In this document: one piece after another, positions 15,727 through 37,240 of the stretch
Numbering within the stretch: the first letter of the stretch is position 1
Layout: every line of letters begins with the position of its first letter
NCBI GenBank assembly: GCA_964437835.1
Contig: CAYTJA010000466.1
Coordinates: 6,019 to 70,018, forward strand
DNA from: an uncultured Spirochaetales bacterium
GTDB taxonomy: Bacteria > Myxococcota_A > UBA9160 > SMWR01
Reading direction: 5' to 3'
Length of the DNA stretch: 64,000 bases
Program-made: the position numbers and the translations under genes
Notes under the pieces: model-generated
Told to the model about the DNA's origin: nothing
The model's input: the letters and a program-made list of their open reading frames with translations, nothing else
The model's database searches: none

Positions 15727-16809
15727 GTGCGGATGGGTTGCGCGATCGTCGGAACAGCGCTCTTCGCGGGCGCCTTCGGGGCGCTGGTGTTCGGCAGCGG
15801 CGGCCCCGACGACGCCCGGGGAGCGGGCAATGCGTCTCGCAGCGCTGCCGCGCTCCGCGCTGCCGAAGCATCCGCGCCGCAATCGCGCCGAGCCCCGCTC
15901 GCTGCGCCGGGCTCCCGAGCCACGACCCGGCTGCCACGGATCCGCCCGGCAGCGGCAGCGCCGACCGCAGCCGCGCTGGCCTCGCGCGAGCAGCTCGAAG
16001 TCTGGAAGCGCCAGCTGCGCGACGGCGCGCGGCGCGAGGTCGTCGGGAACGCGGAACTCGCGCGAACGCAGGCCCGCCTGCGCTCGCTCGATGCGCGCGA
16101 GCTCGGCGCGCTGCGGGAGCTGATCGAGGCCAATGAACTCTCGGAAGCGTCCTCGGGACACGACCTCGACGACGGCGACGGCCGTTTCGAGCCGTGGGAG
16201 CTCGGCTTCCAGATCTGGGAGCACGGGCACCTGGTGCTGCTCGCGCTAGGTCCGGATCCCTACGCGAGCTACGGCTATGCGCTGCGCGCGCTGCCCGAGG
16301 CCGTCGCGGCCTTCGAGCGGCTCGAGCTGCTCGATCTCAGCGGCGGCGAGCTCGGGCAGCTGCCCGACGCGCTCGGCCGGCTAGCGCAGCTGCGCGAGCT
16401 GCGCCTCGCGCACAATCAGCTCGACGCCCTGCCCGAGAGCCTCGGAGAGCTGATCCAGCTCGAGCGCCTGGTGCTGAGCGCCAACCGGATCGAAGCGCTG
16501 CCCCGCTCGCTGCGCGGCCTCGAACAGCTCGAGGAGCTCTGGCTCGCGGACAATCCCCTCGCAGAGCTGCCGGCCGAGCTGCTGGAGCTGCCCGCGCTGC
16601 GCCAGCTCGACGTCTCGCAGTCGCTCGGCGCGGCGCAGCTGCCGCCCGAGCGCGGGCTGCGCGAGCTTCCGGAGGTCGCGCGCGCGGCGAGGCTCGAAGC
16701 GCTCTACGTCGCCGGAAACCGGCTGTGTGGCGCGGCCGTCTCCGCTGCCCGCTTCGACGGCTCGGCTCGCCCACTTCGCGGTCTCGGGCTGCAGCGCTGC
16801 GAAAGCTGA
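15727..16809 (+). CDS. leucine-rich repeat (LRR) protein with N-terminal hydrophobic segment
   Basis: 360-aa ORF. N-terminal CAIVGTALFAGAFGALVF. The C-terminal half is a run of LxxLxLxxNxLxxLP units (LELLDLSGGELGQLPDALGRLAQLRELRLAHNQLDALPESLGELIQLERLVLSANRIEALPRSLRGLEQLEELWLADNPLAELP...). Confidence 0.75.
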   Translation: MRMGCAIVGTALFAGAFGALVFGSGGPDDARGAGNASRSAAALRAAEASAPQSRRAPLAAPGSRATTRLPRIRPAAAAPTAAALASREQLEVWKRQLRDGARREVVGNAELARTQARLRSLDARELGALRELIEANELSEASSGHDLDDGDGRFEPWELGFQIWEHGHLVLLALGPDPYASYGYALRALPEAVAAFERLELLDLSGGELGQLPDALGRLAQLRELRLAHNQLDALPESLGELIQLERLVLSANRIEALPRSLRGLEQLEELWLADNPLAELPAELLELPALRQLDVSQSLGAAQLPPERGLRELPEVARAARLEALYVAGNRLCGAAVSAARFDGSARPLRGLGLQRCES

Positions 16810-16836: not shown

Positions 16837-19800
16837 ATGGCGCGGCGCGGAAGACTCGTGCTCGAGCGCGGCCCCGAAGACGCGGTCGGCCTGCCCGCCT
16901 CGCTCGAGGCCGAGCGCCTGATCCTGGGCCGCGGCAGCGATTCCGACATTCGGCTCCCGGTCGCCGCGGTCTCGCGCGTGCACGCCGAGATCGTCTGGCA
17001 GGGCGAGCGCCTGATGCTGATCGCGCGCAGCACGACCAGCCCGACCGCGGTGAACGGCAGCAGCCTCGAGGGCTCGCGCGAGCTCGCGGACGGCGATCAG
17101 ATCGAGCTCGCGAACCAGGTGCTGCTGCGCGTCGAGCTGCCGCCGGCCGAGCCTGCGCGGGTGGCTGCGGATTCCGCCACGCTGGTGTTTGCCGCGCCGA
17201 CTCCGACTCCGGTGGCTCCAGCGCGCGCCCCGGTGGCGCCCGCAGCTCCGGCGGCGCCGGCGGCTCCTGCGGCGCCAGCAGCCCCTGCGACGCCCGCGCC
17301 CGTTGCGGCGCCAGCAGCGCCTGCGACACCCGTACCCGCTGCGCCGCCGGCAGCCCCTGCTAGGCCCGTACCCGCTGCGCCGCCGGCAGCTGCGGTCGCG
17401 GCTCCGGCAGCGGTCGCTCCGTCCCCCCCCGCCGCTGCGCCCGCGCCAGCCGCGGCGCCTGACGCGTTCAAGGGCCCCGCGCGCATCGCGATCGTCGGCG
17501 CGGGACCCGCCGGCATCGCCGCGGGGGTGCAGGCCGCCAAACGCGGCGTGCCTCACGTGCTGCTCGAGCGCGGCCGCCTGGCCGAGACGATCGAGCGCTA
17601 CCAGAAGGGCAAGTTCGTGATGGACGAGCCCACCCGGCTCACGCTGCATCCCGAGCTCGAGGTCGGCTTCAAGGCCGGCGCGCGCGAGGAGATCCTCGCG
17701 ACCTGGCAGAAGGCCGTGTCGCAGGCCGGAGTCGAGCTGCGCTGCGGGCGCGAGTTCGGGGTCCAGGAGATCCGCGGGCAGCGGGGGGCCTTCGAGCTCG
17801 TGTTGCGCGGTGGCGAGCGAATCCAGGCCACCCACGTGGTGCTCGCGATCGGGGTGCAGGGCAATCTCAAGAGCTTCGGCGTCGCAGGCGACGATCTGCC
17901 CCACGTCACCTATCAGCTCGACGACCCAGCCGCCTACGAGGGCAAGCGCGTCGCGATCGTCGGCGTCGGCGACGCCGGGATCGAGAACGCGCTCGCGCTC
18001 GCGCAGCACGACAACGACGTCTTCATCGTGAACCGGCGCGACGAGTTCGCGCGCGCGAAAGCGCGCAACCGCGCGCTCGTCGATGCCGCGATCAAGAGCG
18101 GCCAGATCGCGCACTACACCCACAGTACGGTCGACCACTTCGAGCCCGGCGCGGTCGTGCTGCGCCGCAAGGAAGGTCAGGAGCGCCTCGAGCTCGACCT
18201 CGTGATCGGCCGCCTCGGCGGAAACCCGCCGCGCGACTTCCTGCAGGGCCTCGGCGTGCAGTTCGCGTCGGAAGATCCCGAGGCCGTGCCCGAGCTCTCG
18301 CCGAGCTACGAGACGAACGTTCCGGGCATCTTCGTGATCGGCGCGCTCGCGGGCTACCCGCTGATCAAGAACTGCATGAACCAGGGCTTCGAGGTCGTCG
18401 AGCACATCCTCGGCCAGCCCGTCACCCCGGCCGACGAGCCGCTGTTGCGCGAGAAGTTCAAGGGCATTCCGGGCAGCGTCAGCGAGATTCTCGAGCGCAT
18501 CCGCCGCCGCGTGCCGGTGTTCCGCGATCTCACGCCGGTCCAGCTGCGTGAGTTCTTGTTCGAAGCGGAGGTGAAGCAACTGAAAGCTGGCGAGGTCGTC
18601 TACCGCCGCAACGACTACACCAACGAGTTCTACGCGGTGCTCGCGGGCAAGGTCGCGCTCGAGGAGCCCTCCCTGGAACGCGACGTCGACGTCGGGCGCA
18701 CGATCGCGTTCACGCGCACGCTGCTCGCACAGGACATCCAGGGCTACCGGCGCGAGGTGCCGATCGGCGGCTTCTTCGGCGAGACCGAGCTCTTCTCGGG
18801 TCGGCGTCGCAGTGCGACGGCCACCGCGCTCGAGCCGACCCTCGTCATCGAGGCGCCGCGCCTCTCGATGGCGCGGCTGCTGCAGTCGACTCCGGCCGTG
18901 CAGCGAGCCGTGGATGCGGTGTTTGTCGAGCGCACGCTCGAAAAGCGCCTGCCCGAGCTCTCCGCGGCCGAGCGCGCGGCGCTCGCGGCTGCGGCCGAGA
19001 TCCGCCACTACCCCCCCGATCAGGTGATCTTCAAGGAAGGCGACGCGCCGGACGGTCTGCACCTGATCCGGCGTGGGTCGGTCGCGATCCAGCGCGTGGT
19101 CGACGGCCGCGAGCGCGTGATGCAGTACCTGCAGACCGGCGCGTGGCTCGGCGTGATGGGCGTGCTGTCGCCGGAGCTCGGCCGCCGAGCATCGGTGCGC
19201 GCGAAGGTGCTGACCGAGACGCTGCTGCTGCCGCAAGCCGCGCTGCTGCCGCTGCTCAAATCGAACCGCGCGCTGCGCGAGGGGCTCCAGCGCTGCGCGA
19301 ACGAGGACGCCGTCTGGGACGCCATGCAGGCCGAGGGCGGCGGCGGAACGATGCTCTTCATTCTCGACAAGACCGGGGCCTTCGAGGCCACCGACCTGCT
19401 GCTGATCGACGAGTCGCTCTGCATCCGCTGCGACAACTGCGAGAAGGCCTGCGCGGACACGCACCTCGGCCTCTCGCGCCTCGATCGCGAAGCCGGGCCG
19501 ACCTATCAGACCTCCGGCGGCGCGCAGCTGCACGTGCCGACGGCCTGCCAGCACTGCGAGAACCCGAAGTGCATGGAGGACTGCCCACCCGACGCGATCC
19601 GCCGCCACGCGAACGGCGAGGTCTACATCAAGGACAACTGCATCGGCTGCGGCAACTGCAAGAACAACTGTCCCTACGGCGTGATCCAAATGGCGACGGT
19701 CGAGCCGTATCGGAAGGCGAACCTGCTGGCTCAGCTGCTGCTCGGCAGCAGCCCGAAGCGCGGCGGCGGCGCGCACGCCGAAGGCGAGGCGCACTCCGAA

Positions 19801-19947
19801 GCCGCGGTGAAGTGCGACCTCTGCCAGGGGCTGCCCGCGCCGAAGCGCGGCGGCACGCGCGCGGCCTGCGTCGCGGCCTGCCCGACCGGAGCGATCGTGC
19901 GCGTCGAGCCGCGCAACTTCATCGCCGAGCTGGTCAAAGGGCGTTGA
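16837..19947 (+). CDS. multidomain redox/signalling protein: FHA, Pro/Ala linker, FAD/NAD(P) pyridine-nucleotide-disulfide-oxidoreductase-like domain, 2x cyclic-nucleotide-binding domain, 4Fe-4S ferredoxin clusters
   Basis: 1036-aa ORF. FHA (LILGRGSDSDIRLPVAAVSRVHAEIVWQG...INGSS-type). IAIVGAGPAGIAAG and VAIVGVGDAGIENA dinucleotide folds. cNMP motifs GGFFGETELFSGRRRSATATA and FKEGDAPDGLHLIRRGSV. Cys clusters CIRCDNCEKAC, CQHCENPKCMEDCP, CIGCGNCKNNCP, CDLCQG...CVAACP. Confidence 0.85.
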   Translation: MARRGRLVLERGPEDAVGLPASLEAERLILGRGSDSDIRLPVAAVSRVHAEIVWQGERLMLIARSTTSPTAVNGSSLEGSRELADGDQIELANQVLLRVELPPAEPARVAADSATLVFAAPTPTPVAPARAPVAPAAPAAPAAPAAPAAPATPAPVAAPAAPATPVPAAPPAAPARPVPAAPPAAAVAAPAAVAPSPPAAAPAPAAAPDAFKGPARIAIVGAGPAGIAAGVQAAKRGVPHVLLERGRLAETIERYQKGKFVMDEPTRLTLHPELEVGFKAGAREEILATWQKAVSQAGVELRCGREFGVQEIRGQRGAFELVLRGGERIQATHVVLAIGVQGNLKSFGVAGDDLPHVTYQLDDPAAYEGKRVAIVGVGDAGIENALALAQHDNDVFIVNRRDEFARAKARNRALVDAAIKSGQIAHYTHSTVDHFEPGAVVLRRKEGQERLELDLVIGRLGGNPPRDFLQGLGVQFASEDPEAVPELSPSYETNVPGIFVIGALAGYPLIKNCMNQGFEVVEHILGQPVTPADEPLLREKFKGIPGSVSEILERIRRRVPVFRDLTPVQLREFLFEAEVKQLKAGEVVYRRNDYTNEFYAVLAGKVALEEPSLERDVDVGRTIAFTRTLLAQDIQGYRREVPIGGFFGETELFSGRRRSATATALEPTLVIEAPRLSMARLLQSTPAVQRAVDAVFVERTLEKRLPELSAAERAALAAAAEIRHYPPDQVIFKEGDAPDGLHLIRRGSVAIQRVVDGRERVMQYLQTGAWLGVMGVLSPELGRRASVRAKVLTETLLLPQAALLPLLKSNRALREGLQRCANEDAVWDAMQAEGGGGTMLFILDKTGAFEATDLLLIDESLCIRCDNCEKACADTHLGLSRLDREAGPTYQTSGGAQLHVPTACQHCENPKCMEDCPPDAIRRHANGEVYIKDNCIGCGNCKNNCPYGVIQMATVEPYRKANLLAQLLLGSSPKRGGGAHAEGEAHSEAAVKCDLCQGLPAPKRGGTRAACVAACPTGAIVRVEPRNFIAELVKGR
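17269..17390 (+). repeat. degenerate 36-nt (12-codon) tandem repeats encoding the Pro/Ala linker
   Basis: Exact 26-nt direct repeat CCCGTACCCGCTGCGCCGCCGGCAGC at 17329-17354 and 17365-17390. Related units GCGGCGCCAGCAGC(C/G)CCTGCGAC start at 17269 and 17305. Period is 36 nt. Confidence 0.7.
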
Positions 19948-19949
19948 GC

Positions 19950-20999
19950 GTGGCCGTGGCCTTCGACCCGCTGATGCGACTTCGCGCGCGCGACCGCCGC
20001 CGGCTCGCAAGCGGCCTCGGGCTGGGCCTCGCGCTGGGCCTGGCACTCTGCGTGGCCGGCTGGCCCGGCACCGGCGTCAGCCTCGCGGGCTTCTGCGCCG
20101 CGAGCGGCCTCGGGCTCGGCTGGGCCAACTGGCCGCAGTGGCGCAAGGCCGCCTGGTGGCGCGGCCGCGGCGGCCTGCCGAAGAGTTACGCCCCCCGCAG
20201 CTTCCTGCGCTACGGGAACTTCCTGCACCTGAAGCTCGCGCTGACTGCCGTGGCCGCCGCCTCGCTCGCCTATCTCCTCGACGACCCGCCCGGAGGTCCC
20301 AGCGGGGGCAGCGCCCTCGGCTATGCGCTCGGGGTCTTCTCGACCGCGTTGGTCGTCTGGCTGCTCTGGTTCGGCGTGCGCAAGCGGCGCTACGACGGCG
20401 GCGGCGCGCCGCTGCAGGCCTGGCTCTCCGGCCACGTCTACCTCGGCCTGACGCTGCTCGTGCTGGTGCCGCTGCACTGCGGCTTCCAGTTCGGCTGGAA
20501 CGTGCACTCGCTGGCCGGAGCCCTGCTGTTCCTGACGCTCGTCTCCGGGATCTTCGGGCTCGTGGCCTACACGCAGATTCCCGCGCGCATGACGCGCAAC
20601 CGTCCCGGTCAGCAGCTCGAGGGCCTGCTGCAGCAGGTCGCCGATATCGACGAGCAGCTGCGCGCCGAGGCGCGCGAGCTGCGCAATGCCGAGCCCGTGC
20701 GGCGCGCGATCGAAGAGACCCGGATCGGTGGCGGCCTCGCGGCGCTGCTCTTCTTCTCGGAGGCGAATTGCGCGACCACGCAGGCGCAGGCCGCGCTGAA
20801 GCGCGCGCGCGACGACGACCCCGGTCTGCTGCGCCCGCTCGAGCTGCTGACGACCAAACAGGCGATCCTGCGCCGCGTGCGGCGCGACCTGCGCTACAAG
20901 GCGCTGCTCGACCTATGGCTCGTGCTGCACGTGCCGCTCTCGCTCGCGTGCGTGGCTGCGGTTGCAGTGCACGTGCTCGCGGTCTTCTACTACCGGTGA
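19950..20999 (+). CDS. polytopic membrane protein with two H-x13-H transmembrane helices (di-haem cytochrome-b-like)
   Basis: Track ORF 19143..20999 trimmed to GTG 19950 (alternative ATG 19974), 3 nt after the upstream stop. About 7 hydrophobic helices. GHVYLGLTLLVLVPLH and LHVPLSLACVAAVAVH each place two His exactly 13 residues apart. Confidence 0.65.
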   Translation: MAVAFDPLMRLRARDRRRLASGLGLGLALGLALCVAGWPGTGVSLAGFCAASGLGLGWANWPQWRKAAWWRGRGGLPKSYAPRSFLRYGNFLHLKLALTAVAAASLAYLLDDPPGGPSGGSALGYALGVFSTALVVWLLWFGVRKRRYDGGGAPLQAWLSGHVYLGLTLLVLVPLHCGFQFGWNVHSLAGALLFLTLVSGIFGLVAYTQIPARMTRNRPGQQLEGLLQQVADIDEQLRAEARELRNAEPVRRAIEETRIGGGLAALLFFSEANCATTQAQAALKRARDDDPGLLRPLELLTTKQAILRRVRRDLRYKALLDLWLVLHVPLSLACVAAVAVHVLAVFYYR

Positions 21000-21002
21000 C
21001 AC

Positions 21003-22841
21003 ATGCGACTGCGCCTGATCCAGGTCACGAGGCGGAAGTCCGGGCGCGAGTCGCGGCGCGAGTCGCAGCTCGAGGGCGAGCTGCTCGCACTCGGGCGCGG
21101 CTCCGACTGCGACCTCGAGCTCGTCGACCTGTCCGTCGCGCTCCGGCACGCGGAGCTGTTGCGCAAGGGCGATGGCGTGTACCTGCGGCCGGTCGGCCGC
21201 AGCGAGCTCAGCGTCTCGGGCCAGCGCTGCGTCGGCGAGCGGCGACTCGCGGTCGGCGATGTGGTGCGCATCGGTCCCTTCGAGCTGCGCGCGATCGCGG
21301 CCGAGGCCGGATTCGATCTCGCGCTCGAAGTCGAACAGATGGCGCGCCGCGAGGACGCGCGCGGCGAGCTCGCCAAGCGCAGCCGCCTGACGGTCGAGGG
21401 GGGATGGTTCTCGCGCCGCACGCTCTCCTTTGCCGGCGTCGCGGTGGTGCTGCTCGGCTTCCTCGTGCTGCCGCTCGCGCTCGGGCGCGCGGGCTCCTGG
21501 AGCAGCGGGCCCCTCTCCCACAAACACTCGTTCGCGGCCGATGACTGCGGCGAGTGCCACACGCGCGCGTTCGCCACCGTCGAGAACGGCGCCTGCCTCG
21601 ACTGCCACGCGGAGATCGGCAACCACAGCGACTCCCCGGCGCTCGCAGCCGCCGGCATGACCGGGGCCGCCTGCACCGACTGCCACAGCGAGCACGCGGG
21701 CGAGCCCGGTCTGCTCGCGCGCGCGCAGGACAGCTGCGCGGGCTGCCACACGGATCTCTCGCAGCGGCTCGAGCAGCCGCGCGTCGCGAATGCGAGCGAC
21801 TTCGCTGCGGACCACCCCGAGTTCCAGCTCGCGATGCTCGACCCCGCCACGCGCAAGGCGACCCCCGTCGGCTGGCAGCGGGATCTCGAGGAGCGCTCCG
21901 GCGTGGCCTTCTCACACGCGCGGCACGTCGGTGAAGCATTGCCCGAGGTGCCGGAGCGCCTGCGCAGCGACCCCGCGCGCAAGAGCGAGCCGCTGCGCTG
22001 CTCGAGCTGCCACCAGCTCGAAGCGGGAGGCCAGCGCATGCAGCCGATCGAGTTCGAGAAACACTGTCAGGCCTGCCACCAGCTCGGCTTCGACGCCGCG
22101 CTGCCGGACGACCAGGCGCCGCACGCGAAGCCGGTCGAGCTGCGCGAGGGGCTGCGCAGGCTCTACGCCGCGCAGGTGGTCGCGGGCAATGCGGCCGCGG
22201 TCGCGCTGCCGGAGGCGCTGCGCTTCCGGATCCCCGGCTCGACGCTCTCGGACCAGGAACAGTCGCAGGCGCAGGGCTTCGTCGACGCCCGCGTCCGGCG
22301 CGCCGAGCACGCGCTCTACGTCGAGCCCGGCGAGTGCGCGCGCTGCCACGCGCTCGAGCGCGACGCGCCGGCTGCGAGCGAAGAGAGCGGAGCGGGCGAA
22401 GCGTCCCTGGCCAAGCCGCCGAGCGTTCCGCCGGTCTATATCACCGAGCGCTGGATGCCGCAGTCGATGTTCCGGCACGCGACGCACGCGCCCTTCCCCT
22501 GCGCGGACTGCCACCCGGCCGCGGCGGCCTATCTCGAGGGCGGCGACGCCGAGAACCCGCGCCCCGAGTGGTCGCTGCCGGAGGCCGGGCCCTTTGCCCT
22601 GCGCACAGAAGCCGAGCTCCAAGAGCTCGGGCTGACGCCCAGCAAGCTGGCGTCCGACCTGCTGATTCCCGGCATCGAGCAGTGCCGCGGCTGCCACGGC
22701 GGCGAGAATGCGCGGCCGCCCGAGGTGGCCTCCGAGTGCAGCCTCTGCCACCGCTTCCACCGCGCCGAGCACGGGCCGATGCAGCCGGGCGGCGCGGCGC
22801 GGCCCTCGCCGGTGGCCCGCAACGCGGCGCACTCGGACTGA
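21003..22841 (+). CDS. FHA domain - single TM - decahaem c-type cytochrome
   Basis: 612-aa ORF. N-terminal FHA-like LALGRGSDCDLELVDLSVALRHAELLRKGDGVYL. TM helix LSFAGVAVVLLGFLVLPLAL. Ten CxxCH motifs: CGECH, CLDCH, CTDCH, CAGCH, CSSCH, CQACH, CARCH, CADCH, CRGCH, CSLCH. Confidence 0.85.
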   Translation: MRLRLIQVTRRKSGRESRRESQLEGELLALGRGSDCDLELVDLSVALRHAELLRKGDGVYLRPVGRSELSVSGQRCVGERRLAVGDVVRIGPFELRAIAAEAGFDLALEVEQMARREDARGELAKRSRLTVEGGWFSRRTLSFAGVAVVLLGFLVLPLALGRAGSWSSGPLSHKHSFAADDCGECHTRAFATVENGACLDCHAEIGNHSDSPALAAAGMTGAACTDCHSEHAGEPGLLARAQDSCAGCHTDLSQRLEQPRVANASDFAADHPEFQLAMLDPATRKATPVGWQRDLEERSGVAFSHARHVGEALPEVPERLRSDPARKSEPLRCSSCHQLEAGGQRMQPIEFEKHCQACHQLGFDAALPDDQAPHAKPVELREGLRRLYAAQVVAGNAAAVALPEALRFRIPGSTLSDQEQSQAQGFVDARVRRAEHALYVEPGECARCHALERDAPAASEESGAGEASLAKPPSVPPVYITERWMPQSMFRHATHAPFPCADCHPAAAAYLEGGDAENPRPEWSLPEAGPFALRTEAELQELGLTPSKLASDLLIPGIEQCRGCHGGENARPPEVASECSLCHRFHRAEHGPMQPGGAARPSPVARNAAHSD

Positions 22842-24907: not shown

Positions 24908-27301
24908 CTAGCCGCCCTTCATGGTCGCGATCCGCCAGACGCCGTCCTTGCGGGAGATTTCCGCGCGCATCTGGCGCGTCTCTCCATTGATCGTCTGGCG
25001 GAAGGTCGCGATCACGATCCCGTCCTGATGCTTCGCGTCGATCAGCTGGGTCTGGACGGCGGAGGCCGGATGCTCCGCGAAGTACGCCCCCATGCTGTCC
25101 CGCTGGATCTCGCTGAGGACCCGAACTCCCTGCATTTCCGCGAGGCTGCCCCTCTGATAGGCGTTCCGGTAGCGCTCCAGGACTTCCTCGGCGACGCGTC
25201 CTGCGTCGAGCTCGTCTTCCACGGAGACGCTGACGATCCGGCTGGTGGACTCGCTGCGGGCGTCGACGGCCTGGAACTCCAGGGTGTGAGGGCCGGAAGC
25301 GGCGGGCGCATAGCGGAACTCGAAATCGGGAGAGGAGGAGGTCGCAACCTCCTGCTGGTCGACGACGACCCGCAGCGATACCGGGCCCTGGGTGTTTCTC
25401 GCCAGCGCCCGGAAGCTCTGCGTGCTTCCCAGCTTCATTTTCTGTGTCGACGAGGCAGGCGTGAGCTCGAGCTCGAGCGCCTTCGCGACCAGGACAGCCG
25501 GTACCGGCGCGGAGACCGGCAGCACCGATGCACTCGTCACCACGGCCCCGGCAGGGGGCCGTGCAGACACGTCCGGGAGGCGCACCGATGTCGTCCCCAT
25601 CTCCAGGGCCGCGATGAAATACTCGCGCGCGCGGCGGAGCTGGGTTTCGGCCTGCTCGAAGGATTCCTCCTCTTGCAGGGTGCGAGACTCGGCGAGGGCG
25701 AGGCTCCCGGCTTCGACCTCCGCTCGGACCCGCGGATCTCTGGACACGAGCGAGCGACTCGAGCGCTCCGCGCTCTCTGCACTCAGCCATTGGGAGCTGA
25801 GGCGCGCGATCCACGCGGCGCGGACCTGCTCGAGCTGCTCCCGAGCCTGGCTGCCCGATGCTTCGATGCGATCGAGCCTGGCGACATCCGTCGCCGCCGC
25901 GGCGCACGCTGCATCGCCCGCAGCAGCCGCTCCGCTCGCCGGCGGCTGCAGCGTCTCTGCGACCGAGCGCTTCAGCTCCGCGAGACGTTCGGGGTAGAGC
26001 GCGCCCACGCCAGCGTGCTCCAGCTTGCGCAGTCCCGTATCCAGCCGTCCACGCGCGTCTTCGACGATCGGGTGCACCGAGCGCCTGGCCTCCTGGCACA
26101 CTTCAGCCAGGCCCTTTCGAATGCCAGCGAGCGCGGAGCCGAGCTCCGCGACCTGCCCTTCGGCGACCTGGGAGCGAGACGCTTCGAGTTCCGACTGGAG
26201 GTCGATCAGGCGCTGGCTCAGCTTTTCCACCAGCGTGGGGTCGGGGAGTAGCGGGGCGAGTCGCTGCACTTCGCCCACGACTCCGGAGGCCTGCTCCCAG
26301 TGGGCCCCTGCGGCGACCAGGCGTTGCTGATTCACGCGAGTCTGGTTCCAACGCCATGCCGTGGTCCCGCCGAAGGCAAGACTCAGAAACAGCCCGCCGG
26401 CGAGCAGGCTGAGATGGATCCGACGCCACAGGCTCCGGGCGGCGATCTCGGGAACGTGGCCCGAGCTCGATGGAAACGCTCGAGCCAGCGCCTCCTGCAT
26501 CTCCTTCGCGTCCTGATAGCGGTCACCCGGCTTCATGCGGGTGGCTTTCGCGATCAGCTTGCTGATTCGCGGGTCGAAGCCGTCTGGAAAGCTGAACTCG
26601 ACTTCGGCACCGGCTCTGTCCAGCCCGCCGAGATAGAACAGCACGGCGTGGTCCTTCTTGAGATCGATGCCTTCGACGGTCGCGTAGGCAGAATGTTCCG
26701 CCAGCGACCAGTAGAGCGAGAGTCCCATCGAGAAGACATCTGCCGACGCGAGCGCGCGTCTGCCACTCGCTTGCTCGGGCGAGATGTACAGAGCGGTTCC
26801 CATCACTTGGGTGCGGTCGTTGCTCGTGAGCTCGTCGCGCGATATGCCGAGATCGCTGACCAGCACCCGTCCGTCGTCACACAGCAGGATGTTCGCCGGC
26901 TTGATGTCGCGGTGGACGAGGTGCTTCCGATGCAGCTCGGCCAGGCCTTCGAGGGCCTCGCGGTAGATCCGAACCGCATCCTCGAGGGACAGCTGGCCTT
27001 CCGCATGGAGGTTCGAGCCCCGCACGAGCTCCATGGCATACCAATACAAGCCGGCCGCTTCGTCCTTCCCGCGGTCGTAGATCTGGACCAGGTTCTGATG
27101 CTTGAATTGCGATAGGCGCTTGGATTCAGCTTCGAATTCTCTCCACAGCTCCCCTGAGGCGAACTGAGGCTTCAGCACTTTTACAGCGCAGGGGCGATCC
27201 CATTTTTCGTCCCAGGCCTCGTAGACCCAAGCCATCCCGCCCTCTCCGAGGAGATCCTTGACCGGGAAGTTGGGAATCTTGGGAAACGAACCCGAATCCA
27301 T
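24908..27301 (-). CDS. receptor-type Ser/Thr protein kinase (Hanks-type) with TM and large extracytoplasmic region
   Basis: 797-aa ORF. GEGGMAWVY...AVKVLK, HRDIKPANILL, DLGISR, GTALYISPEQ motifs. TM helix LSLLAGGLFLSLAFGG. Long C-terminal region ending in an NTF2-like module. Confidence 0.9.
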   Translation of the reverse strand: MDSGSFPKIPNFPVKDLLGEGGMAWVYEAWDEKWDRPCAVKVLKPQFASGELWREFEAESKRLSQFKHQNLVQIYDRGKDEAAGLYWYAMELVRGSNLHAEGQLSLEDAVRIYREALEGLAELHRKHLVHRDIKPANILLCDDGRVLVSDLGISRDELTSNDRTQVMGTALYISPEQASGRRALASADVFSMGLSLYWSLAEHSAYATVEGIDLKKDHAVLFYLGGLDRAGAEVEFSFPDGFDPRISKLIAKATRMKPGDRYQDAKEMQEALARAFPSSSGHVPEIAARSLWRRIHLSLLAGGLFLSLAFGGTTAWRWNQTRVNQQRLVAAGAHWEQASGVVGEVQRLAPLLPDPTLVEKLSQRLIDLQSELEASRSQVAEGQVAELGSALAGIRKGLAEVCQEARRSVHPIVEDARGRLDTGLRKLEHAGVGALYPERLAELKRSVAETLQPPASGAAAAGDAACAAAATDVARLDRIEASGSQAREQLEQVRAAWIARLSSQWLSAESAERSSRSLVSRDPRVRAEVEAGSLALAESRTLQEEESFEQAETQLRRAREYFIAALEMGTTSVRLPDVSARPPAGAVVTSASVLPVSAPVPAVLVAKALELELTPASSTQKMKLGSTQSFRALARNTQGPVSLRVVVDQQEVATSSSPDFEFRYAPAASGPHTLEFQAVDARSESTSRIVSVSVEDELDAGRVAEEVLERYRNAYQRGSLAEMQGVRVLSEIQRDSMGAYFAEHPASAVQTQLIDAKHQDGIVIATFRQTINGETRQMRAEISRKDGVWRIATMKGG

Positions 27302-27574: not shown

Positions 27575-29635
27575 TTGCGCCTCAGCACCACGGGGATCTA
27601 CTGCGTCGCCGCCGCATCGGCGCTGTTGCTGGCGAGCTGCAAAGGGAAAAGCAGCCCGCGCGGGGGCCCGGACTCCCTCTGCGATGGCGCGTGCCTGCAA
27701 CAGGCGCTTACGCAGAACGATGTCGAGCACGTGGTCGCGCAGGCCAGCATCGAGGCGCAGGCCCAGGGCCTGCCGGTCACGATCGCGGTAGTCGACCGCG
27801 TCGGAAATGTGCTCGCGGTGTTCCGCATGACGGGCGCGTCGACCACCGTGGAGATCTCGGCCGGCCGTTCGAGCGCAAACGGTTCGGGGCTCGCCGGCTT
27901 CGAAATCGAGACGACGCTGGCCGCGATCAGCAAGGCCGGCACTGCGGCCTATCTCTCCTCGCAGGGCAACGCCTTTTCCACCCGGACCGCGAGCCAGATC
28001 GTGCAGGAGAACTTCAACCCGGGGGAGCGCGTGCGCGCGGGTGGCCCACTCTTCGGCGTGCAGTTCTCGCAGCTTCCCTGCGGAGATTTCGTGCGGCGTT
28101 TCGAGAGGAATGGCCTGACCGAGGACGTCTCGCTCGGACCCAAGCGCATGCCGCTCGGCTTCTCGGCCGATCCGGGCGGACTTCCGCTCTACAAGAGCGG
28201 CGTGCCCGTCGGCGGCGTCGGGATCGAGCTCGGCACGAACGCGAGCGCGCCGGCCGAGCAGAGCTACCGAACCGATCCCGACGTGCTCGACCAGGACGTC
28301 CAGCGCGAGGAACGCATCGCGACTGCCGCGGCTGTGAGCTTTGCGGCGCCCGCGAACCGGCGCGCGAACGCGATCTCCGTCGACGGCCGCTTCCTGCGCT
28401 TTGCGGACGATGAGCGCGTCTCGACGCAGCCGATCCCACTCGCGACGCCCGTGACTCTCCCGCCCTCGCTCGGGGTACTCGTGGATGTCGACGGCTTCTT
28501 CGCCGGGGGCGGCGTCCTCGCGGGCACGGAATTGCTGACCCCGGCCTCCGGCATCGTCGCGAGCAGTGTGGACGGGATCGCGGCCGAGCTCGTGGTCAAA
28601 ACGGACGGCACGAATCGCTACCCCGCGATCGACTCGCTCGTGCCCACGCCGGCGGCGGGCGGCATGAGCACCGCCGAAGTCACCGCCGTGCTGCGCGAGG
28701 CATTGCGCGTCGCCGGCCGCTCGCGCGCGCAGATCCGCCGGCCCGCGGGCTCGTCGGTGCGCGTGAACATCTCCATCGTCGACACCGAAGGAACGGTGCT
28801 CGGCTTCGCGCGCACGCCCGACGCGCCGATCTTCGGCGCGGACGTCTCGCTGCAGAAAGCGCGCACGGCGGCGTTCCTGTCGCGGCTCGTGCCTACCTCC
28901 GCAGCCGACGATCTGATCGCGGCGCTCCCGCCACTGCCGGAAGTCACCGCGAAATTCGACACGCGCCCGGTTTCCGAATACCTGATCGCGGCCCAGACTT
29001 TCCTCGCGAAGCCCGATGTCCTCGACGACGGCACCGCGATCAGCGACCGCACGCTCGGCAACCTCGCGCGGCCTTTCTTCCCGGACGGCGTGAACGGCAA
29101 CCCGCCCGGCCCCTTTTCGCGCGTCTTCGAGCGCTGGAGCCCCTTCTCGACCGGGCTGCAGCTCGACGCCGGCCTGCAGGGCATCGCGGTTGCGCTGTGC
29201 CGGAGCTCGCGCGAGCTCCGCAGCCTCCTGTCGATGACCGCCGTCGGCATGTCTCTGATCCCCCCGATCGACCCCGACTTTCCGAACACCTGTCCGGCCG
29301 AGCCGATCGCCTGCACCGATGCGCTCGGCCTCGACCCCGCGCTGCGCGAGCTCGCGAACGGCCTGCAGATCTTTCCCGGCAGCGTGCCGATCTACCGCGG
29401 CTCGCAGCTCGTCGGCGCGATCGGGGTCTCGGGGGACGGCGTCGATCAGGACGACATGGTCGCGTTCCTCGGCCTGCACAACGCGGGCCAGCTGCTCGGC
29501 ACCGGGATCGGAAACGCCCCGATTGCGCAGCGCGCCGACCAGATCCAGGTCGGCGGCGTCAACCTGCGTTATGTGAGCTGTCCGCCGAGCCCCTTCCTCG
29601 ACAGCTCGGAGCAGAGCCCGTGCAAGGGACTGTGA
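27575..29635 (+). CDS. lipoprotein with two GlcG/HbpS-like (DUF336) putative haem-binding domains
   Basis: 686-aa ORF (TTG start). Lipobox LLLASC. Domain 1: VTIAVVDRVGNVLAVFRM...AISKAGTAAYLSS...GGLPLYKSGVPVGGVGI. Domain 2: VNISIVDTEGTVLGFARTPDAPIFGADVSLQKARTAAF...IYRGSQLVGAIGVSGDGVDQDDMVA. Confidence 0.7.
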   Translation: MRLSTTGIYCVAAASALLLASCKGKSSPRGGPDSLCDGACLQQALTQNDVEHVVAQASIEAQAQGLPVTIAVVDRVGNVLAVFRMTGASTTVEISAGRSSANGSGLAGFEIETTLAAISKAGTAAYLSSQGNAFSTRTASQIVQENFNPGERVRAGGPLFGVQFSQLPCGDFVRRFERNGLTEDVSLGPKRMPLGFSADPGGLPLYKSGVPVGGVGIELGTNASAPAEQSYRTDPDVLDQDVQREERIATAAAVSFAAPANRRANAISVDGRFLRFADDERVSTQPIPLATPVTLPPSLGVLVDVDGFFAGGGVLAGTELLTPASGIVASSVDGIAAELVVKTDGTNRYPAIDSLVPTPAAGGMSTAEVTAVLREALRVAGRSRAQIRRPAGSSVRVNISIVDTEGTVLGFARTPDAPIFGADVSLQKARTAAFLSRLVPTSAADDLIAALPPLPEVTAKFDTRPVSEYLIAAQTFLAKPDVLDDGTAISDRTLGNLARPFFPDGVNGNPPGPFSRVFERWSPFSTGLQLDAGLQGIAVALCRSSRELRSLLSMTAVGMSLIPPIDPDFPNTCPAEPIACTDALGLDPALRELANGLQIFPGSVPIYRGSQLVGAIGVSGDGVDQDDMVAFLGLHNAGQLLGTGIGNAPIAQRADQIQVGGVNLRYVSCPPSPFLDSSEQSPCKGL

Positions 29636-31824
29636 GCGGCCGCAGGCGCGCGCGCGTTTTCGCGCGGGTCGTGTGTGCTGCGCTGCCGCTGCTCGCGCCC
29701 GCGGCGCACGCCGCCGACGCTGCGCTGCTCGCGCTGCGTGTCGGCGAGCACCCGGGCTACACGCGCGTCGTGCTCGAGCTCGACGTCGCGGCGCCGCTGA
29801 GCCTCGAGGAGCAGACCCGCATCGGTGACGCCAGCGAGCTGACGCTGCTGCTCAGCGCGGTCGCCGCCGCCGCGCAGCGAGTTCCCGGGAGCGGCCTCGT
29901 CGAGAGCATCCGCGTCGAGCCGCTCGCAGACGCGACGCGCGTGCGCATCCAACTGCGCGAGGCCGGAGTCGAATGGAAGCGCTCCGAGCTTTCGGGACCG
30001 CCGCGCTGGGTGCTCGACTTCTCGACCGGCAGCGGTCTCAGCGATGCGGAGCCCGGCGCCGGCCCCGCGCCGACTGTTGCAGAGCCCCCGCTGCTGGCTC
30101 GAGCGGAGGAAGTGGACGCGACGCCCGTGCCGCCGCGTTCCCGCCTGCGCCGGCCCGGCGACCGCGCGACGCCGCAGCCCGCGGTCGCAGGGCGCTCCAG
30201 CGATCCGGAGATCGCGGCCCGCAGCGCCGCGCGCGAGCGGCTGCCGCTGCCGGACTACGACTTCGTCGCGGTCCCCGACCGCTGGCGCATCGTCGAGAAC
30301 ATCGGCGTGAACGAAAGATTCTGGGATCCCTATCACCAGAACACCCTCAAGGGCGACCGCCCGATCCTCGGTACGCATGACTGGTTCGTGAACCTGGCCG
30401 CGATCTCCGACACCGTCGTCGAGCCGCGCCGGCTGCCGACGCCGGTCGGCCTGCAGGCGGAGCGCAAAGCCGGGCGCAACGGAATCTTCGGTGCCGGCGA
30501 GCAGCTGCTCGTAGTGCAGAACCTGATCCTGTCGGCGTCGCTGATCCAGGGCAACACCGTGTTCCGCCCGCCGGACTGGGAGTTCCGCTTCACGGGCGTC
30601 GGCAACGTCAACTACGCCGAGGTCGAGACGCTCGGCGTGTTGAAGGCCGACCCGGCCAAGGGCAGGAGCCGCACGGACGGGCACTTCGGCCTGCAGGAGG
30701 CCTTCGTCGACCGCCACCTGCGCAACAAGTCCGAGCGCTACGACTTCGACAGCCTGCGGCTCGGCGTGCAGCCCTTCATCTCCGACTTCCGCGGCTTCCT
30801 GTTCCAGGACAGCCAGCTCGGCGCGCGCGTCTTCGGCACCGCAGCGAACAACCGCATCCAGTACAACCTCGCCTACTTCCAGCGCCTCGAGAAGGACACG
30901 AACTCGGGGCTGAACCGATTCGACGCGCTGCGTGAGGACGGCGTGCTGTTCGCGAACGCCTACTACCAGGATTTCCCGGTGCTCGGCTTCACGAGCCAGG
31001 CGATCGTCGCCTACAACTGGAATCGCGAGGCCGACGACCGCCATTACAACGACAACGACTTCCTCGAGCGGCCCGCCCCGATCGGCGACGCGCGCGGCCA
31101 CGACTACGACGTCGTGTATCTCGGGCTGAACGGCGATGGCCACATCGACCGACTCAATCTCACCTTCGCCGGCTACTACGCGGCCGGGCACGACTCGCAC
31201 CAGCCGCTCGCGGCGCACAGCGCTGCGATCTCGGCCTGGTTCACCGCGCTGGAGGGCTCGCTCGACTTCGACTGGGTTCGGCTCAAGGCCTTCGGCCTGT
31301 TCGCGAGCGGCGATGCGGACCCGGAAGACGACCTCGCGACCGGCTTCGACGCGATCTTCGAGAATCCGCAGTTCGCGGGCGCCGACACCAGCTTCTTCCA
31401 GCGGCAGGGCATCCCGCTGATCTTCGGCGGCGGCGTCGTGCTGGTGTCGCGCAACGCGCTGCTGCCTTCGCTGCGAACCTCGAAGGAGGAAGGCCAGTCG
31501 AACTTCGTGAATCCGGGGCTCGGGCTGCTGGGCGTCGGCGCAGACCTCGACATCCTGCCCGAGCTGCGCCTGGTGGCGAACGCGAGCTGGCTCACGTTCC
31601 ACGAGGTCGACTCGCTGCAGCTGCTGCGCAACCAGGCCGAGGTCGACCATGAAATCGGCTGGGACCTCTCGGCCGGCCTGATCTACCGCCCGCTCTTGAT
31701 CCAGAACGTCGCGTTCCGCGTGTCCGGAGCGGTGCTGCTGCCGGGCGCCGGGATGCGCGATCTCTTCGAGACGCACCCGTCGCCCTTCTACTCGGTGCTG
31801 CTGAATCTCACGCTCACGTACTGA
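29632..31824 (+). CDS. AMIN-domain protein fused to a large outer-membrane beta-barrel
   Basis: Track ORF 29197..31824 trimmed to GTG 29632 (GTGA overlap with the upstream stop). Signal peptide ...LLAPAAHA. AMIN-like ALRVGEHPGYTRVVLELD...RVRIQL...RWVLDF. About 550 aa of beta-strand-rich sequence ending ...LLNLTLTY. Confidence 0.7.
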   Translation: MSGRRRARVFARVVCAALPLLAPAAHAADAALLALRVGEHPGYTRVVLELDVAAPLSLEEQTRIGDASELTLLLSAVAAAAQRVPGSGLVESIRVEPLADATRVRIQLREAGVEWKRSELSGPPRWVLDFSTGSGLSDAEPGAGPAPTVAEPPLLARAEEVDATPVPPRSRLRRPGDRATPQPAVAGRSSDPEIAARSAARERLPLPDYDFVAVPDRWRIVENIGVNERFWDPYHQNTLKGDRPILGTHDWFVNLAAISDTVVEPRRLPTPVGLQAERKAGRNGIFGAGEQLLVVQNLILSASLIQGNTVFRPPDWEFRFTGVGNVNYAEVETLGVLKADPAKGRSRTDGHFGLQEAFVDRHLRNKSERYDFDSLRLGVQPFISDFRGFLFQDSQLGARVFGTAANNRIQYNLAYFQRLEKDTNSGLNRFDALREDGVLFANAYYQDFPVLGFTSQAIVAYNWNREADDRHYNDNDFLERPAPIGDARGHDYDVVYLGLNGDGHIDRLNLTFAGYYAAGHDSHQPLAAHSAAISAWFTALEGSLDFDWVRLKAFGLFASGDADPEDDLATGFDAIFENPQFAGADTSFFQRQGIPLIFGGGVVLVSRNALLPSLRTSKEEGQSNFVNPGLGLLGVGADLDILPELRLVANASWLTFHEVDSLQLLRNQAEVDHEIGWDLSAGLIYRPLLIQNVAFRVSGAVLLPGAGMRDLFETHPSPFYSVLLNLTLTY

Positions 31825-34800: not shown

Positions 34801-35731
34801 GCAGGCGATGCACCCGATCTACAGCTATGCCGCGGTGACCGACTCCGAAGAGGGCCTGATCCTCGTGAACGTCGAGACCCTCGGCGACTTCGAGCCGCGC
34901 AACAACTTCTTCGAGCGCGCACTGACCTGGAATCCCGGCGGCCTGCTGGATGGCGCGCGGCATGCGCACTTCGCGGGGCACCTGCTCTACGTCTCGGCCG
35001 ACACCGGCATCATCGTCGTCGACCTGAACGACCCGCTGCAGCCGAAGGCGCTCGCGCGGATCCCGCTGATCAAGCCGCGCGCGTCGATGCAGCAATTCCG
35101 CTACCTCTTCGCGGTCGACCTCGAGGGTTTCAAGGTCGTCGATGTGACGAACCCCGCCGCACCGCGCCTCCTGCCCGGCTCGAGCGTGCGCCTCGCCGAC
35201 GCGCGGCGCGTCTTCGTCTCGCGCACCTACGCCTACGTTGCCGCGGGCCGCGAGGGTCTCGTGATCATCGACGTCGAGCGCCCCGAAGAGCCGCGCATCG
35301 CGCAGCGCTTCGACGCGGGCGGCCAGCTCTCCGACGCGCGCGACGTGATCGTCTCGACGACCAACGCCTCGCTCTTCGCCTACGTCGCCGACGGCGTGAA
35401 CGGCCTCAAGGTGCTGCAGCTGACTTCGCCCGAGAGTCAGCCGCGCCTCTACGGCTTCAGCCCCGAGCCGAAACCCGAGCTGATCGCGTGGCGCAAGACT
35501 GCCTCCCCGGCGCTCTCGCTCTCGCGCCCCCTCGAACGCGACCGCGCGGTCGACGAGACCGGCCACCAGATCGCGGTCTTCGGCCGCGTCGGCTCGCGGC
35601 CCTTCGACCTCGAGGAGATGCAGCAGCTGTATCTCGGCGACGACGAGCGCGTCTGGACCGTCGAGGACGAGGAATCCATCCCGAGCGCTGCGCGGGCGAG
35701 CGGCGGACCCCGCGATCGCTGCCCGCCCTGA
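31838..35731 (+). CDS. secreted decahaem c-type cytochrome fused to a C-terminal LVIVD-repeat (beta-propeller-like) region
   Basis: 1297-aa ORF with a signal peptide. Ten CxxCH motifs: CRSCH, CSDCH, CGACH, CSGCH, CMTCH, CSDCH, CADCH, CFSCH, CGGCH, CTDCH. C-terminal repeats: GLILVNVETL, GIIVVDLNDPLQP, GFKVVDVTNPAAP, GLVIIDVERPEEP, GLKVLQLTSPESQP. Confidence 0.85.
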   Translation: MKLAFPLTTALAAALLAAVAAGAAEGEAPREIAYPSTPPAPEHQDSAQAEAKSAGCRSCHTPMDEASMHATPGVELGCSDCHGGNAETARPAQSFPGGRAYEEAKARAHVQPRYPHAWGLDEEGRRVGPQPVRAYTLYNREAPEFIRFVNPGDLRVAEEACGACHAEIVQANRRSLMATGAMLWGGASYNNGILPFKRYVLGEAYTRDGQPAAIESRFEISPELAKRGVLPRFLPLPAWETIPPMDNFRVFERGGKFNVSQFPEIGLPKSQDDPGKPDIRQSNRGEGTGARIAVPALNIHKTRLNDPLLWFPGTNDNPGDFRASGCSGCHVVYANDREPLHSGLYAAAGHQGQSQSADPTIAERLNASGHKESGHPLKHAFTRAIPTAQCMTCHMHQPNMFVNSYLGYTMWDYEADAPLMWPKQQAYPSIPEMHERLERNPEEANIRGLWGDPEFLSRVWDDVNPQARDTQFADYHGHGWNFRGVFKRNRKGALLDAKGETIPDDLPPKQKWQRAVHLRDIHVEYGMQCSDCHFAQDSHGDGFLKGEVAAAVEIGCADCHGTSRARPTLRTSGPAAPPGGNDLSFLRNADGGARFVWRGERLYQRLVLPPHTEIEVTQVIDTVTRGHPAYNAKAARAKTLERGPGQRWGEAASGCERAHDDEKLACFSCHSSWVTSCGGCHLPIQANWKTERHHYEGGETRNFATYNPQVARDEMFQLGVHGEAKNGIIAPVRSSSALVLSSTDINRNRIYQQQPPVSAGGFSAQAFAPHFPHTVRKTETKTCTDCHVSQRNDNNALMAQLLLLGTNFVNFTGYNAWVGGERHLSAIQVTEWDEPQAVLGSYLHRYAYPDWFAEHEARGRELTRPSPGALDADPGWVASLRRFFQGSFGGHAIYDGTYGHGSGPVGCLQLRGEYLYAAEGPRGMQAYDVASVANKGFSERVVTAPFSPLGQNLRVKSRNATCVALPTTQPIRPERNRQVREAFPENLEQAMHPIYSYAAVTDSEEGLILVNVETLGDFEPRNNFFERALTWNPGGLLDGARHAHFAGHLLYVSADTGIIVVDLNDPLQPKALARIPLIKPRASMQQFRYLFAVDLEGFKVVDVTNPAAPRLLPGSSVRLADARRVFVSRTYAYVAAGREGLVIIDVERPEEPRIAQRFDAGGQLSDARDVIVSTTNASLFAYVADGVNGLKVLQLTSPESQPRLYGFSPEPKPELIAWRKTASPALSLSRPLERDRAVDETGHQIAVFGRVGSRPFDLEEMQQLYLGDDERVWTVEDEESIPSAARASGGPRDRCPP

Positions 35732-37093: not shown

Positions 37094-37240
37094 GCGCGGA
37101 ATCCTACACCCCCGATCCGAGACCCGGGCGCCCCTCTCGAGGACAGGGAAGCACGCTTTCAGTGCCCGTGAATCCCCTCAAGCCCGGGGGACGATCCCCG
37201 ATACAGAGGGACCTTTCCAGCACGCAGGAGCTTCGCCCCG

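Follow-up and report, generated by a model that had tools for sequence, protein, structure and literature searches.

The gene at positions 16837 to 19947 (+ strand) of the 64,000-nt stretch of DNA analysed here (the window, part of a contig from an uncultured Spirochaetales bacterium that GTDB places in Myxococcota_A) encodes a protein of 1,036 amino acids (aa). It joins an FHA domain, a Pro/Ala linker, a flavoprotein resembling thioredoxin reductase (TrxR) and YpdA, two cyclic nucleotide monophosphate (cNMP)-binding domains and four [4Fe-4S]-type cysteine motifs. We propose that this protein, hereafter the target, is the cytoplasmic, NAD(P)H-oxidising and cNMP-gated input or control subunit of an electron conduit that would span the cell envelope and bypass the quinones. 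We give this reading a probability of about 0.55, its chemistry, direction and gating being deduced from sequence. The proposal draws on domain content, the conservation of motifs and cofactor ligands, gene order, heme counts and topology signals, all of which are directly seen. The modules of the target are:

16921..17109 (+, aa 29-91): FHA domain (Pfam FHA, E 6.8e-12); R32, S46 and H49 kept, Ser68 at the position of the family Asn

17149..17454 (+, aa 105-206): disordered Pro/Ala/Thr-rich linker, encoded by a tandem repeat; AlphaFold2 confidence (predicted local distance difference test, pLDDT) about 30

17482..18426 (+, aa 216-530): flavoprotein with two dinucleotide-binding folds (Pfam Pyr_redox_3/2), without CxxC and without the YpdA Cys

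18499..18906 (+, aa about 555-690): cNMP domain 1 (Pfam), with the cassette FFGE(646-649)...RRRSAT(656-661) and a variable acidic insertion

18949..19341 (+, aa about 705-835): cNMP domain 2 (best Pfam stretch 723-810); Arg783 kept, Val773, Arg784

19399..19914 (+, aa 855-1026): four-cluster ferredoxin domain (Pfam Fer4_10/7/9/11) with 16 invariant Cys

The open reading frame (ORF) is uninterrupted, starts with ATG and has GC contents of 0.75, 0.50 and 0.90 at the three codon positions, the third-position value (GC3) being of the coding type in a window of about 71% GC. Each domain type exceeds its Pfam gathering cutoff, and an AlphaFold2 model built on a 25-sequence alignment gives the FHA beta-sandwich, the flavoprotein and both cNMP domains at pLDDT 80-95. 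An earlier note, made from the sequence alone, had described a single ORF of five modules. With the ORF intact and every module above its cutoff this description is borne out, and its domain inventory agrees with Pfam, the family alignment and AlphaFold2.

The same note had left the function as unknown. This can be narrowed considerably when the conserved downstream genes, which it had missed, are taken into account. Relatives of the core of about 800 aa were found in 171 of 185,579 species genomes, scanned with one genome per species, and we compared gene order in the best 80 of these 171 loci, which span Alpha- and Gammaproteobacteria, Methylococcales and Myxococcota, with all counts corrected for contig ends. 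On the same strand and in a fixed order, the target is followed by a membrane protein (71 of 72 loci), an FHA-containing decaheme cytochrome (64 of 66), an HbpS-like protein (49 of 56), an outer-membrane protein (44 of 52) and a large decaheme cytochrome (42 of 49). In one locus (L023) the target and the membrane protein are present and the cytochrome is missing. The window carries every conserved downstream gene, the outer set lying at 27575-35731:

19950..20999 (+): polytopic membrane protein with five transmembrane helices, probable di-heme cytochrome b; His pairs and a weak PF01292 match

21003..22841 (+): FHA-decaheme cytochrome c, 612 aa; a cytoplasmic non-canonical FHA domain, one transmembrane helix and a periplasmic part with 10 CxxCH motifs

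27575..29635 (+): HbpS-like, lipoprotein-like protein with three DUF336 domains (PF03928, E 2e-25)

29632..31824 (+): probable outer-membrane beta-barrel whose exact start is uncertain; it has a signal peptide and ends in ...NLTLTY

31838..35731 (+): large decaheme cytochrome c, secreted; LVIVD beta-propeller region at the C-terminus (10 CxxCH; Pfam LVIVD and Cytochrome_C7)

Both junctions inside the trio formed by the target, the membrane protein and the FHA-decaheme have 3-nt gaps (stop 19947 to start 19950, and stop 20999 to start 21003). A promoter and terminator scan of 15.4-23.2 kb returned 0 promoters and a terminator count at chance level. Because the conserved partners comprise a membrane protein resembling a di-heme cytochrome b, an FHA-decaheme and an outer-membrane module, we place the target in trans-envelope electron transfer.

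In the flavoprotein module (Pyr_redox_3/2 over aa 216-517, E 3e-29), the two dinucleotide motifs already picked out in the earlier note are present and conserved across the family: GAGPAG (aa 221-226) for FAD and GVGDAG (aa 376-381) for NAD(P)H, the second as G376xGxxG/A381 and followed by N399-R400-R401. N399-R400 is invariant in 77 members, and position 401 is R or K in 68 of them. In PDB alignments this N-R-(R/K)-D-E stretch mirrors the NADPH-binding HRRDE of TrxR, a likeness that suggests NADPH as the substrate. The label thioredoxin-reductase-like is right for the fold but not for the function: the redox-active CAVCDG of TrxR aligns to YQLDDP, and the catalytic Cys of YpdA (Cys14, GGGPCG) aligns to Ala225 of GAGPAG, where the family (n=77) has G or A and never C. 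Since YQLDDP is invariant in the 77 members and no Cys stands at the YpdA position, the module is, going by sequence, not a disulfide reductase. YpdA is the best structural match in Foldseek (TM-score 0.68-0.70), and fold matches to the group of TrxR-type ferredoxin-NADP+ reductases (FNRs; 3ab1, 3lzw, 5ygq) reach E values of about 1e-16 to 1e-17. The target shares the two-Rossmann-domain fold with YpdA/Bdr and TrxR-type FNRs (PDB 7a7b, 7a76, 3ab1, 3lzw; TM-scores 0.6-0.7), the absence of CxxC with the TrxR-type FNRs and the absence of a GD motif with YpdA. It differs from them in having no YpdA catalytic Cys, in a sequence identity of about 20% and in being fused to a probable Fe-S acceptor and to regulatory domains. 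A related flavoprotein also occurs, at about residues 340-610 and behind a different N-terminal region, in five metagenomic proteins of 945-977 aa (P0262, P0272, P0277, P0281 and P0294), which represent a separate architecture.

The cNMP-binding family (PF00027) matches the target with an E value of 3.7e-31 (107.4 bits against a cutoff of 27.5), the two domains appearing as three Pfam stretches with an insertion that splits domain 1. In Foldseek the tandem pair resembles the regulatory subunits of protein kinase A. Site 1 has a canonical cassette (FFGE646-649 and R658-S-A-T), its Glu being kept in all 77 full-length relatives and its Arg in 76. At site 2 both Glu and Arg are kept in 76 of the 77, and the window protein is the sole exception for Glu. 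Because both cassettes are near-invariant family-wide, ligand binding seems to be under selection, and the family looks like a true two-site cNMP receptor. In the window copy, canonical nucleotide binding is probably limited to site 1; P0001, the closest metagenomic relative of the target, has Ile at the site-2 Glu position. Both cNMP domains of the earlier note are therefore found, with site 1 canonical, but site 2 of the window copy has lost its ribose-contact Glu (E773V). The absence of ligand-contact residues from the cNMP or FHA regions, which that note had named as grounds for doubt, applies in part to the window copy and not to the family.

At the C-terminus, Fer4 dicluster families match aa 856-1020 (Fer4_11 with 33.3 bits against 26.2; Fer4_10, Fer4_7 and Fer4_9 above their cutoffs), and all 16 Cys are invariant in an alignment of 25 homologs. 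The four motifs, Cx2Cx2Cx3C(A), Cx2Cx4Cx3CP, Cx2Cx2Cx3CP and Cx2Cx14Cx3CP, show the spacing of the DmsB/HycB type. All four Cys motifs are real, but only one is strictly of the CxxCxxCxxxCP form that had been ascribed to all of them. The closest solved relatives in sequence are HycB3/B4 of the hydrogen-dependent CO2 reductase and HycB of formate hydrogenlyase, together with ArrB-type subunits; HycB, HycB3 and HycB4 are electron-wire subunits. With the HycB/HydN/DmsB type the target shares the four Cys motifs and their spacing, whereas its domain is cytoplasmic and fused C-terminally to a flavoprotein, and its partner is an unrelated membrane protein instead of an anchor of the NrfD/DmsC type.

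What kind of protein could receive these electrons in the membrane? The start of the membrane protein at 19950 agrees with the source annotation, and its His residues are numbered here from the Met at 19974. H154 and H168 lie on one helix and H319 and H333 on the last one; all four are invariant in 25 diverse members, each pair has a 13-residue spacing, and the distribution of positive-inside residues would put the two His of a pair near opposite faces of the membrane. Paired His residues at such a spacing are the classical signature of bis-heme transmembrane electron transfer, as in cytochrome b and ferric-reductase domains. In a permissive Pfam scan of the 25 members, PF01292 gave weak matches in 24 (best E 5.7e-8), Ferric_reduct in 11 and DUF4405 in 7, and no Pfam family reaches its threshold for the window protein. 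The His pattern and these family-wide matches indicate that the protein is probably a divergent di-heme cytochrome b, from a family that comprises at least 384 unannotated clusters at 90% identity. Membership of the NOX/ferric-reductase-domain family was considered and rejected: PF01794 matches the window protein with E 0.36, below threshold, and the family weakly in those 11 of 25 members, and the dehydrogenase is TrxR-like, not FNR-like. Between transmembrane helices 4 and 5 (aa about 205-305) the protein also has a conserved cytoplasmic helical insert of about 100 aa, modelled at pLDDT >90; it contains a TRIGGG motif whose GG is invariant, and a Cys that most members keep. This insert may be a docking site for the Fe-S domain.

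The FHA-decaheme matches Pfam FHA, Yop-YscD_cpl and Cytochrome_C7/c3, and has 10 CxxCH motifs in 60 of 63 loci. Its FHA domain is universal in the system, including those Proteobacteria whose flavoprotein has no FHA domain. A YscD-type model outscores the FHA model; Gly-Arg is kept in 62 of 63 sequences, the Ser that contacts phosphothreonine in 9 of 63 and the Asn in 0 of 63. By these sequence features, the FHA domain of the cytochrome most likely serves in docking or assembly independently of phosphorylation, and the role of canonical reader falls to the FHA domain that the Myxococcota-affiliated clade has fused to the target. Further out, the outer-membrane protein at 29632..31824 has no Pfam match, and its homologs end in Tyr or Phe in 43 of 46 complete cases. 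The homologs of the large decaheme are about 1,100-1,300 aa long and carry the LVIVD propeller. With the two decahemes, the predicted hemes of the cluster number about 20.

In the target, the FHA domain (PF00498) scores 46.1 bits against a cutoff of 20.7, is modelled as a beta-sandwich at pLDDT 85-95 and has mycobacterial FHA proteins as its best PDB matches. Among 12 FHA-fused proteins, the residues that contact phosphothreonine are kept in 12 (Arg), 11 (Ser), 12 (His) and 10 (Asn) cases. The idea of a phosphothreonine reader is partly supported: the window copy keeps Arg, Ser and His but has Ser68 in place of the conserved Asn. As in GarA and OdhI, a canonical FHA domain would let Ser/Thr-kinase signals act on a redox or metabolic enzyme; unlike in those proteins, the FHA domain is tethered to the enzyme that it presumably controls, and its phospho-dependence is putative. 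The DNA of the tether (17222-17390) is an imperfect 18/36-nt tandem repeat of 4.7 copies with an 80% match (Tandem Repeats Finder), which accounts for the locally weaker GC3 periodicity, and the length of the linker differs widely between homologs in the family alignment. Three metagenomic homologs (P0003, P0007 and P0162) have two tandem N-terminal FHA domains instead of one.

The neighbourhood of the window offers a kinase and a further cytochrome:

24908..27301 (−): Hanks-type Ser/Thr protein kinase (Pkinase, E 2e-35), within a lower-GC insertion

35756..37177 (−): accessory tetraheme c554-like cytochrome (Pfam Cytochrome_C554; 4 CxxCH), which adjoins the target in 9 loci

The kinase is a candidate writer for the FHA domain of the target, and a kinase also stands beside the cluster in the two closest FHA-fused relatives (L001 and L007). 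The window kinase belongs to a three-gene insertion of lower GC content (22893-27346; 0.65-0.685 against about 0.71) that splits the conserved cluster into the trio and the outer module and that also encodes a small secreted protein with CX4CH and, on the same − strand as the kinase, a MetA-like outer-membrane protein. No homolog of the insertion genes was found at the same position in the 80 related loci, and no kinase, phosphatase or nucleotide cyclase is conserved near the cluster in them. The tetraheme gene is followed by one for a diguanylate cyclase-type HDOD-GGDEF protein (window 35756-38761).

A model of the path that electrons might take can be drawn from these parts. NAD(P)H, probably NADPH, would reduce FAD in the TrxR/YpdA-like module, and the four [4Fe-4S] clusters at the C-terminal end would then pass the electrons on. 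Two b hemes, bound by the H-x13-H pairs of the membrane protein, would take them across the inner membrane to the ten c hemes of the membrane-anchored decaheme on the periplasmic side, and from there they would proceed via the HbpS-like lipoprotein to the outer-membrane barrel and the second, large decaheme. The tandem cNMP domains, placed between the flavin and Fe-S modules in the chain, would most likely gate intramolecular transfer upon binding of cAMP or cGMP, and repositioning that depends on the nucleotide could make or break the contact between FAD and the clusters. In the Myxococcota-affiliated branch, the N-terminal FHA domain on its disordered, TP-rich tether of about 100 residues would add an input from Ser/Thr kinases. 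Energetically, electrons run downhill from NAD(P)H to c-type hemes, and the membrane potential favours their outward movement. Since energy is lost along such a path, strict allosteric control would be understandable. The coupling of two signals to electron transfer proposed in the earlier note is plausible as a link between signal input and electron transfer; in the window copy one of the two cNMP sites is degenerate. More tentatively, the whole might act as a quinone-independent, second-messenger-gated 'electron export valve', a bacterial counterpart of NADPH oxidase made from unrelated parts that would send NAD(P)H electrons to the cell surface only when cAMP or cGMP, here together with Ser/Thr phosphorylation, permits; we hold this to be possible and not yet probable.

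Two preprints appear to have noticed, judging by their descriptions, the same trio as that of the window. One of them (bioRxiv 10.1101/2023.11.21.568154) reports a ptdABCDEFG operon in Alphaproteobacteria of marine oxygen-deficient zones, and also in nitrite-oxidising Nitrospirales, and calls its function completely unknown; PtdE is given as a cNMP-binding protein with 4Fe-4S, PtdF as a ferric-reductase-like transmembrane protein and PtdG as a decaheme, with an associated porin and further multihemes. Compared by description only, ptdEFG match the window trio (16837-22841) in gene order and content, and homologs of the target system occur in metagenome-assembled genomes (MAGs) of marine Rhodospirillaceae. 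There, penta- and tetraheme proteins lie upstream, whereas in the window system the HbpS-like protein, the outer-membrane protein and the large decaheme lie downstream; the ptdA-D gene order was not seen upstream in the marine Rhodospirillaceae loci. The preprint makes no mention of a flavoprotein module in PtdE, of His pairs, of FHA domains or of an N-terminal FHA fusion. The second preprint (bioRxiv 10.64898/2026.01.22.701106) describes the 'NHC' cluster of Ferrigenium straubiae, in which an FHA-bearing, membrane-anchored nonaheme cytochrome stands beside a protein with five transmembrane helices and a cytosolic [4Fe-4S] protein, of unknown function according to its authors. They found no redox motif in the transmembrane protein, favour an inward flow to quinone and consider the combination of FHA and multiheme previously unreported. 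This likeness, too, is matched by description only; the window system has a decaheme in place of the nonaheme, and the conserved His pairs of its membrane family point to a route through b hemes. The trio layout of the ptdEFG/NHC type is present in the window genes, and the same order recurs in 64-71 related loci. In further literature searches we found no functional work on the system.

Better known systems offer partial parallels. In NADPH oxidase and in Fre-MsrQ-MsrP, electrons go from cytoplasmic NAD(P)H to a flavin, through two stacked b hemes on His pairs about 13 residues apart, and on to an acceptor at the outer face. The window system follows the same logic of the electron path as these and the ferric reductases, but with non-homologous parts: its dehydrogenase is TrxR/YpdA-like and not FNR-like, a wire of four Fe-S clusters and the cNMP domains stand in between, five transmembrane helices and a sub-threshold Ferric_reduct match characterise the membrane protein, and the acceptor would be a decaheme and not O2 or MsrP. 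With the porin-cytochrome systems of the MtrCAB/Pcc type it has in common an outer-membrane barrel and decahemes that are co-encoded with a periplasm-spanning multiheme; a Pfam search detected no membership of the Mtr family beyond generic heme motifs. In known systems for extracellular electron transfer, the quinol pool is the electron source (CymA, ImcH/CbcL) and regulation acts chiefly at the level of gene expression, whereas the window system appears to have its own NAD(P)H-linked, cNMP-regulated entry at the inner membrane.

Several points weigh against the target being the gated input subunit of such a conduit. Cofactor occupancy, electron donor, flow direction, gating and terminal acceptor are what we infer, and the direction in particular rests on inference. 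Neither of the two preprints with a matching trio assigns it a function, and our proposal is built on sequence. In the flavoprotein, the classical FAD 'GD' motif is missing (GALAG), although YpdA, which binds FAD, lacks it likewise. The Fe-S domain is modelled with low confidence (pLDDT 40-58), as is usual for such domains without their cofactors. The window membrane protein scores 12.3 bits against a cutoff of 30.1 for PF01292, and neither fold (best E 0.1) nor profile searches turned up a solved relative. On the side of regulation, site 2 of the window copy carries Val773 in place of Glu and Arg784 in place of Ser, both in this copy only (n=77), and its FHA domain has Ser68 where Asn is conserved in 10 of the 12 fused homologs. 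A kinase is found near the cluster in only 5 of the 80 loci, including the two closest FHA-fused relatives (L001 and L007). Finally, in a Binatia MAG (L015) the core protein is an orphan, with neither the membrane nor the cytochrome partner within 10 kb.

Could the protein be an artefact, or an ordinary reductase? An assembly error or frameshift might have fused an FHA gene to a separate oxidoreductase gene, a possibility raised in the earlier note. The low-complexity linker, encoded by a tandem repeat, is the sort of place where assemblies slip, the GC3 periodicity is reduced across it, and the exact 1,036-aa protein is absent from public collections in which the adjoining membrane protein and the FlhA of the window are present; the source annotation may have called or flagged the gene differently. 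However, the Pro/Ala codons would by themselves lower the GC3 signal, and 11 of 12 independent related assemblies encode the FHA domain and the core as one continuous reading frame, a fusion also seen in about 20 clusters of metagenomic proteins. In a neighbour-joining tree of the core region all FHA-fused proteins group together as one clade, and an independent short-read assembly matches window 17657-21686 without gaps at 99.975% identity. On these grounds a frameshift or chimera was ruled out, and we give it next to no credence. A stand-alone, cNMP-regulated thiol-disulfide reductase of the TrxR or bacillithiol-reductase kind, functionally unrelated to its neighbours, is very improbable as well. 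YpdA/Bdr and TrxR are indeed the best NCBIfam and PDB matches, and JGI annotations read 'thioredoxin reductase', yet the CxxC of TrxR and the Cys14 of YpdA are both missing family-wide and the scores fall far below the curated cutoffs (145.5 bits against 339.9 for the YpdA/Bdr bacillithiol-disulfide reductase model TIGR04018, and 68.5 against 343 for the low-Mr thioredoxin reductase model TIGR01292), grounds on which both activities were rejected. Moreover, a soluble disulfide reductase would hardly be expected to carry a fused four-cluster ferredoxin or to lie almost always next to genes for membrane and heme proteins.

The remaining alternatives accept the complex and change what it does. 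It might work inward, with an extracellular or periplasmic donor such as Fe(II) feeding the cytochromes, the membrane protein and the Fe-S and flavin modules in turn, down to NAD(P)+ or a ferredoxin-like acceptor. TrxR-type FNRs are reversible. The matching trio of Ferrigenium belongs to an Fe(II) oxidiser, and its authors propose that the FHA-multiheme cytochrome feeds electrons towards the inner membrane; the report of the ptd operon in nitrite oxidisers tends the same way. Nevertheless, we consider inward flow unlikely: reduction of NAD(P)+ (about −320 mV) from c-type hemes would be strongly uphill and would have to work against the membrane potential, the conserved gene set showed no energy-coupling subunit, and most of the hosts found are heterotrophs, such as Tahibacter, Rudaea, Nevskia, Ferrovibrio and Myxococcota. 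Doubtful, too, is a redox-sensing complex in which the cytochromes and hemes would report the periplasmic or extracellular redox state and the flavo-FeS protein would relay it through FHA and cNMP domains to kinase or cNMP networks. It would fit the three regulatory domains on the target and the one FHA domain on the cytochrome, the Ser/Thr kinase and HDOD-GGDEF protein nearby in the window, and the fact that HbpS-like proteins are known from a redox-sensing system of Streptomyces. On the other hand, no output domain (kinase, cyclase or DNA-binding) is fused to the proteins or conserved in the cluster, cNMP domains receive signals and do not transmit them, and four Fe-S clusters, two putative b hemes, more than 20 c hemes and an outer-membrane module would make a costly sensor.

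Other parts of the window lie outside the conserved cluster. Upstream of the target stands one lineage-specific gene:

15727..16809 (+): leucine-rich-repeat protein (Pfam LRR_8/LRR_4), 27 bp upstream of the target

It shows sub-threshold matches to leucine-rich-repeat effectors of the Xanthomonas XopAC/XopL type and has an upstream homolog in only two loci (L005 and L007). Before it, long overlapping ORFs at 12189-15652 resolve by GC3 into at least three genes, including those for an unannotated secreted protein of 227 aa, a protein of about 400 aa with no Pfam match and an enzyme of the GDP-mannose-dehydratase/epimerase type; a TetR regulator and a transketolase are encoded upstream of this region. 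At 51578-63333 there is a flagellar cluster (MotB, FliL, FliO/P, FlhB, FlhA, FlhF), accompanied by genes for a histidine kinase and a sigma-54 response regulator. Its FlhA is 100% identical to an NCBI protein and 63-65% identical to that of Myxococcota MAGs, from which we take the source to be a Myxococcota-affiliated MAG with flagella. Cultured Myxococcota are generally described as non-flagellated.

How unusual is the architecture of the target? The earlier note called it so, and it is not unique: the core occurs in the 171 species genomes mentioned above and the fused form in at least 12 genomes, besides the metagenomic clusters. What holds is that the fused form, going by sequence, is one rare Myxococcota-affiliated clade. 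FHA fusions were found in 12 of the best 80 of the 171 species genomes, all of them MAGs labelled Myxococcota, Deltaproteobacteria or 'Spirochaet*'. When 1.84 billion representatives were scanned exhaustively with HMMER, 574 clusters at 50% identity were obtained (E ≤ 1e-30), many of them fragments, and only two of the 574 cluster representatives cover the FHA region. The nearest relative of the target is 59% identical to it. The target is therefore a lineage-specific member, FHA-fused and degenerate at cNMP site 2, of a recently noticed and uncharacterised family.

If the target is the gated entry of a trans-envelope conduit, cells would have a different means of shedding or supplying reducing power: an NAD(P)H-oxidising step that cyclic nucleotides and Ser/Thr phosphorylation switch after translation. 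Should it act as an export valve, extracellular electron transfer would come under direct allosteric control by cyclic nucleotides. The hosts are aerobic bacteria of soil and water (Tahibacter, Rudaea, Nevskia, Ferrovibrio), marine Rhodospirillaceae and Myxococcota; among cultured ones, Tahibacter sp. UC22_41, T. soli and T. harae have the cluster. With such a range, the system may matter for metal and redox cycling beyond the classical metal reducers. The proposal would also give a concrete, testable role to a trio that two studies have flagged as unexplained, and to a family of membrane proteins that has so far carried no annotation.

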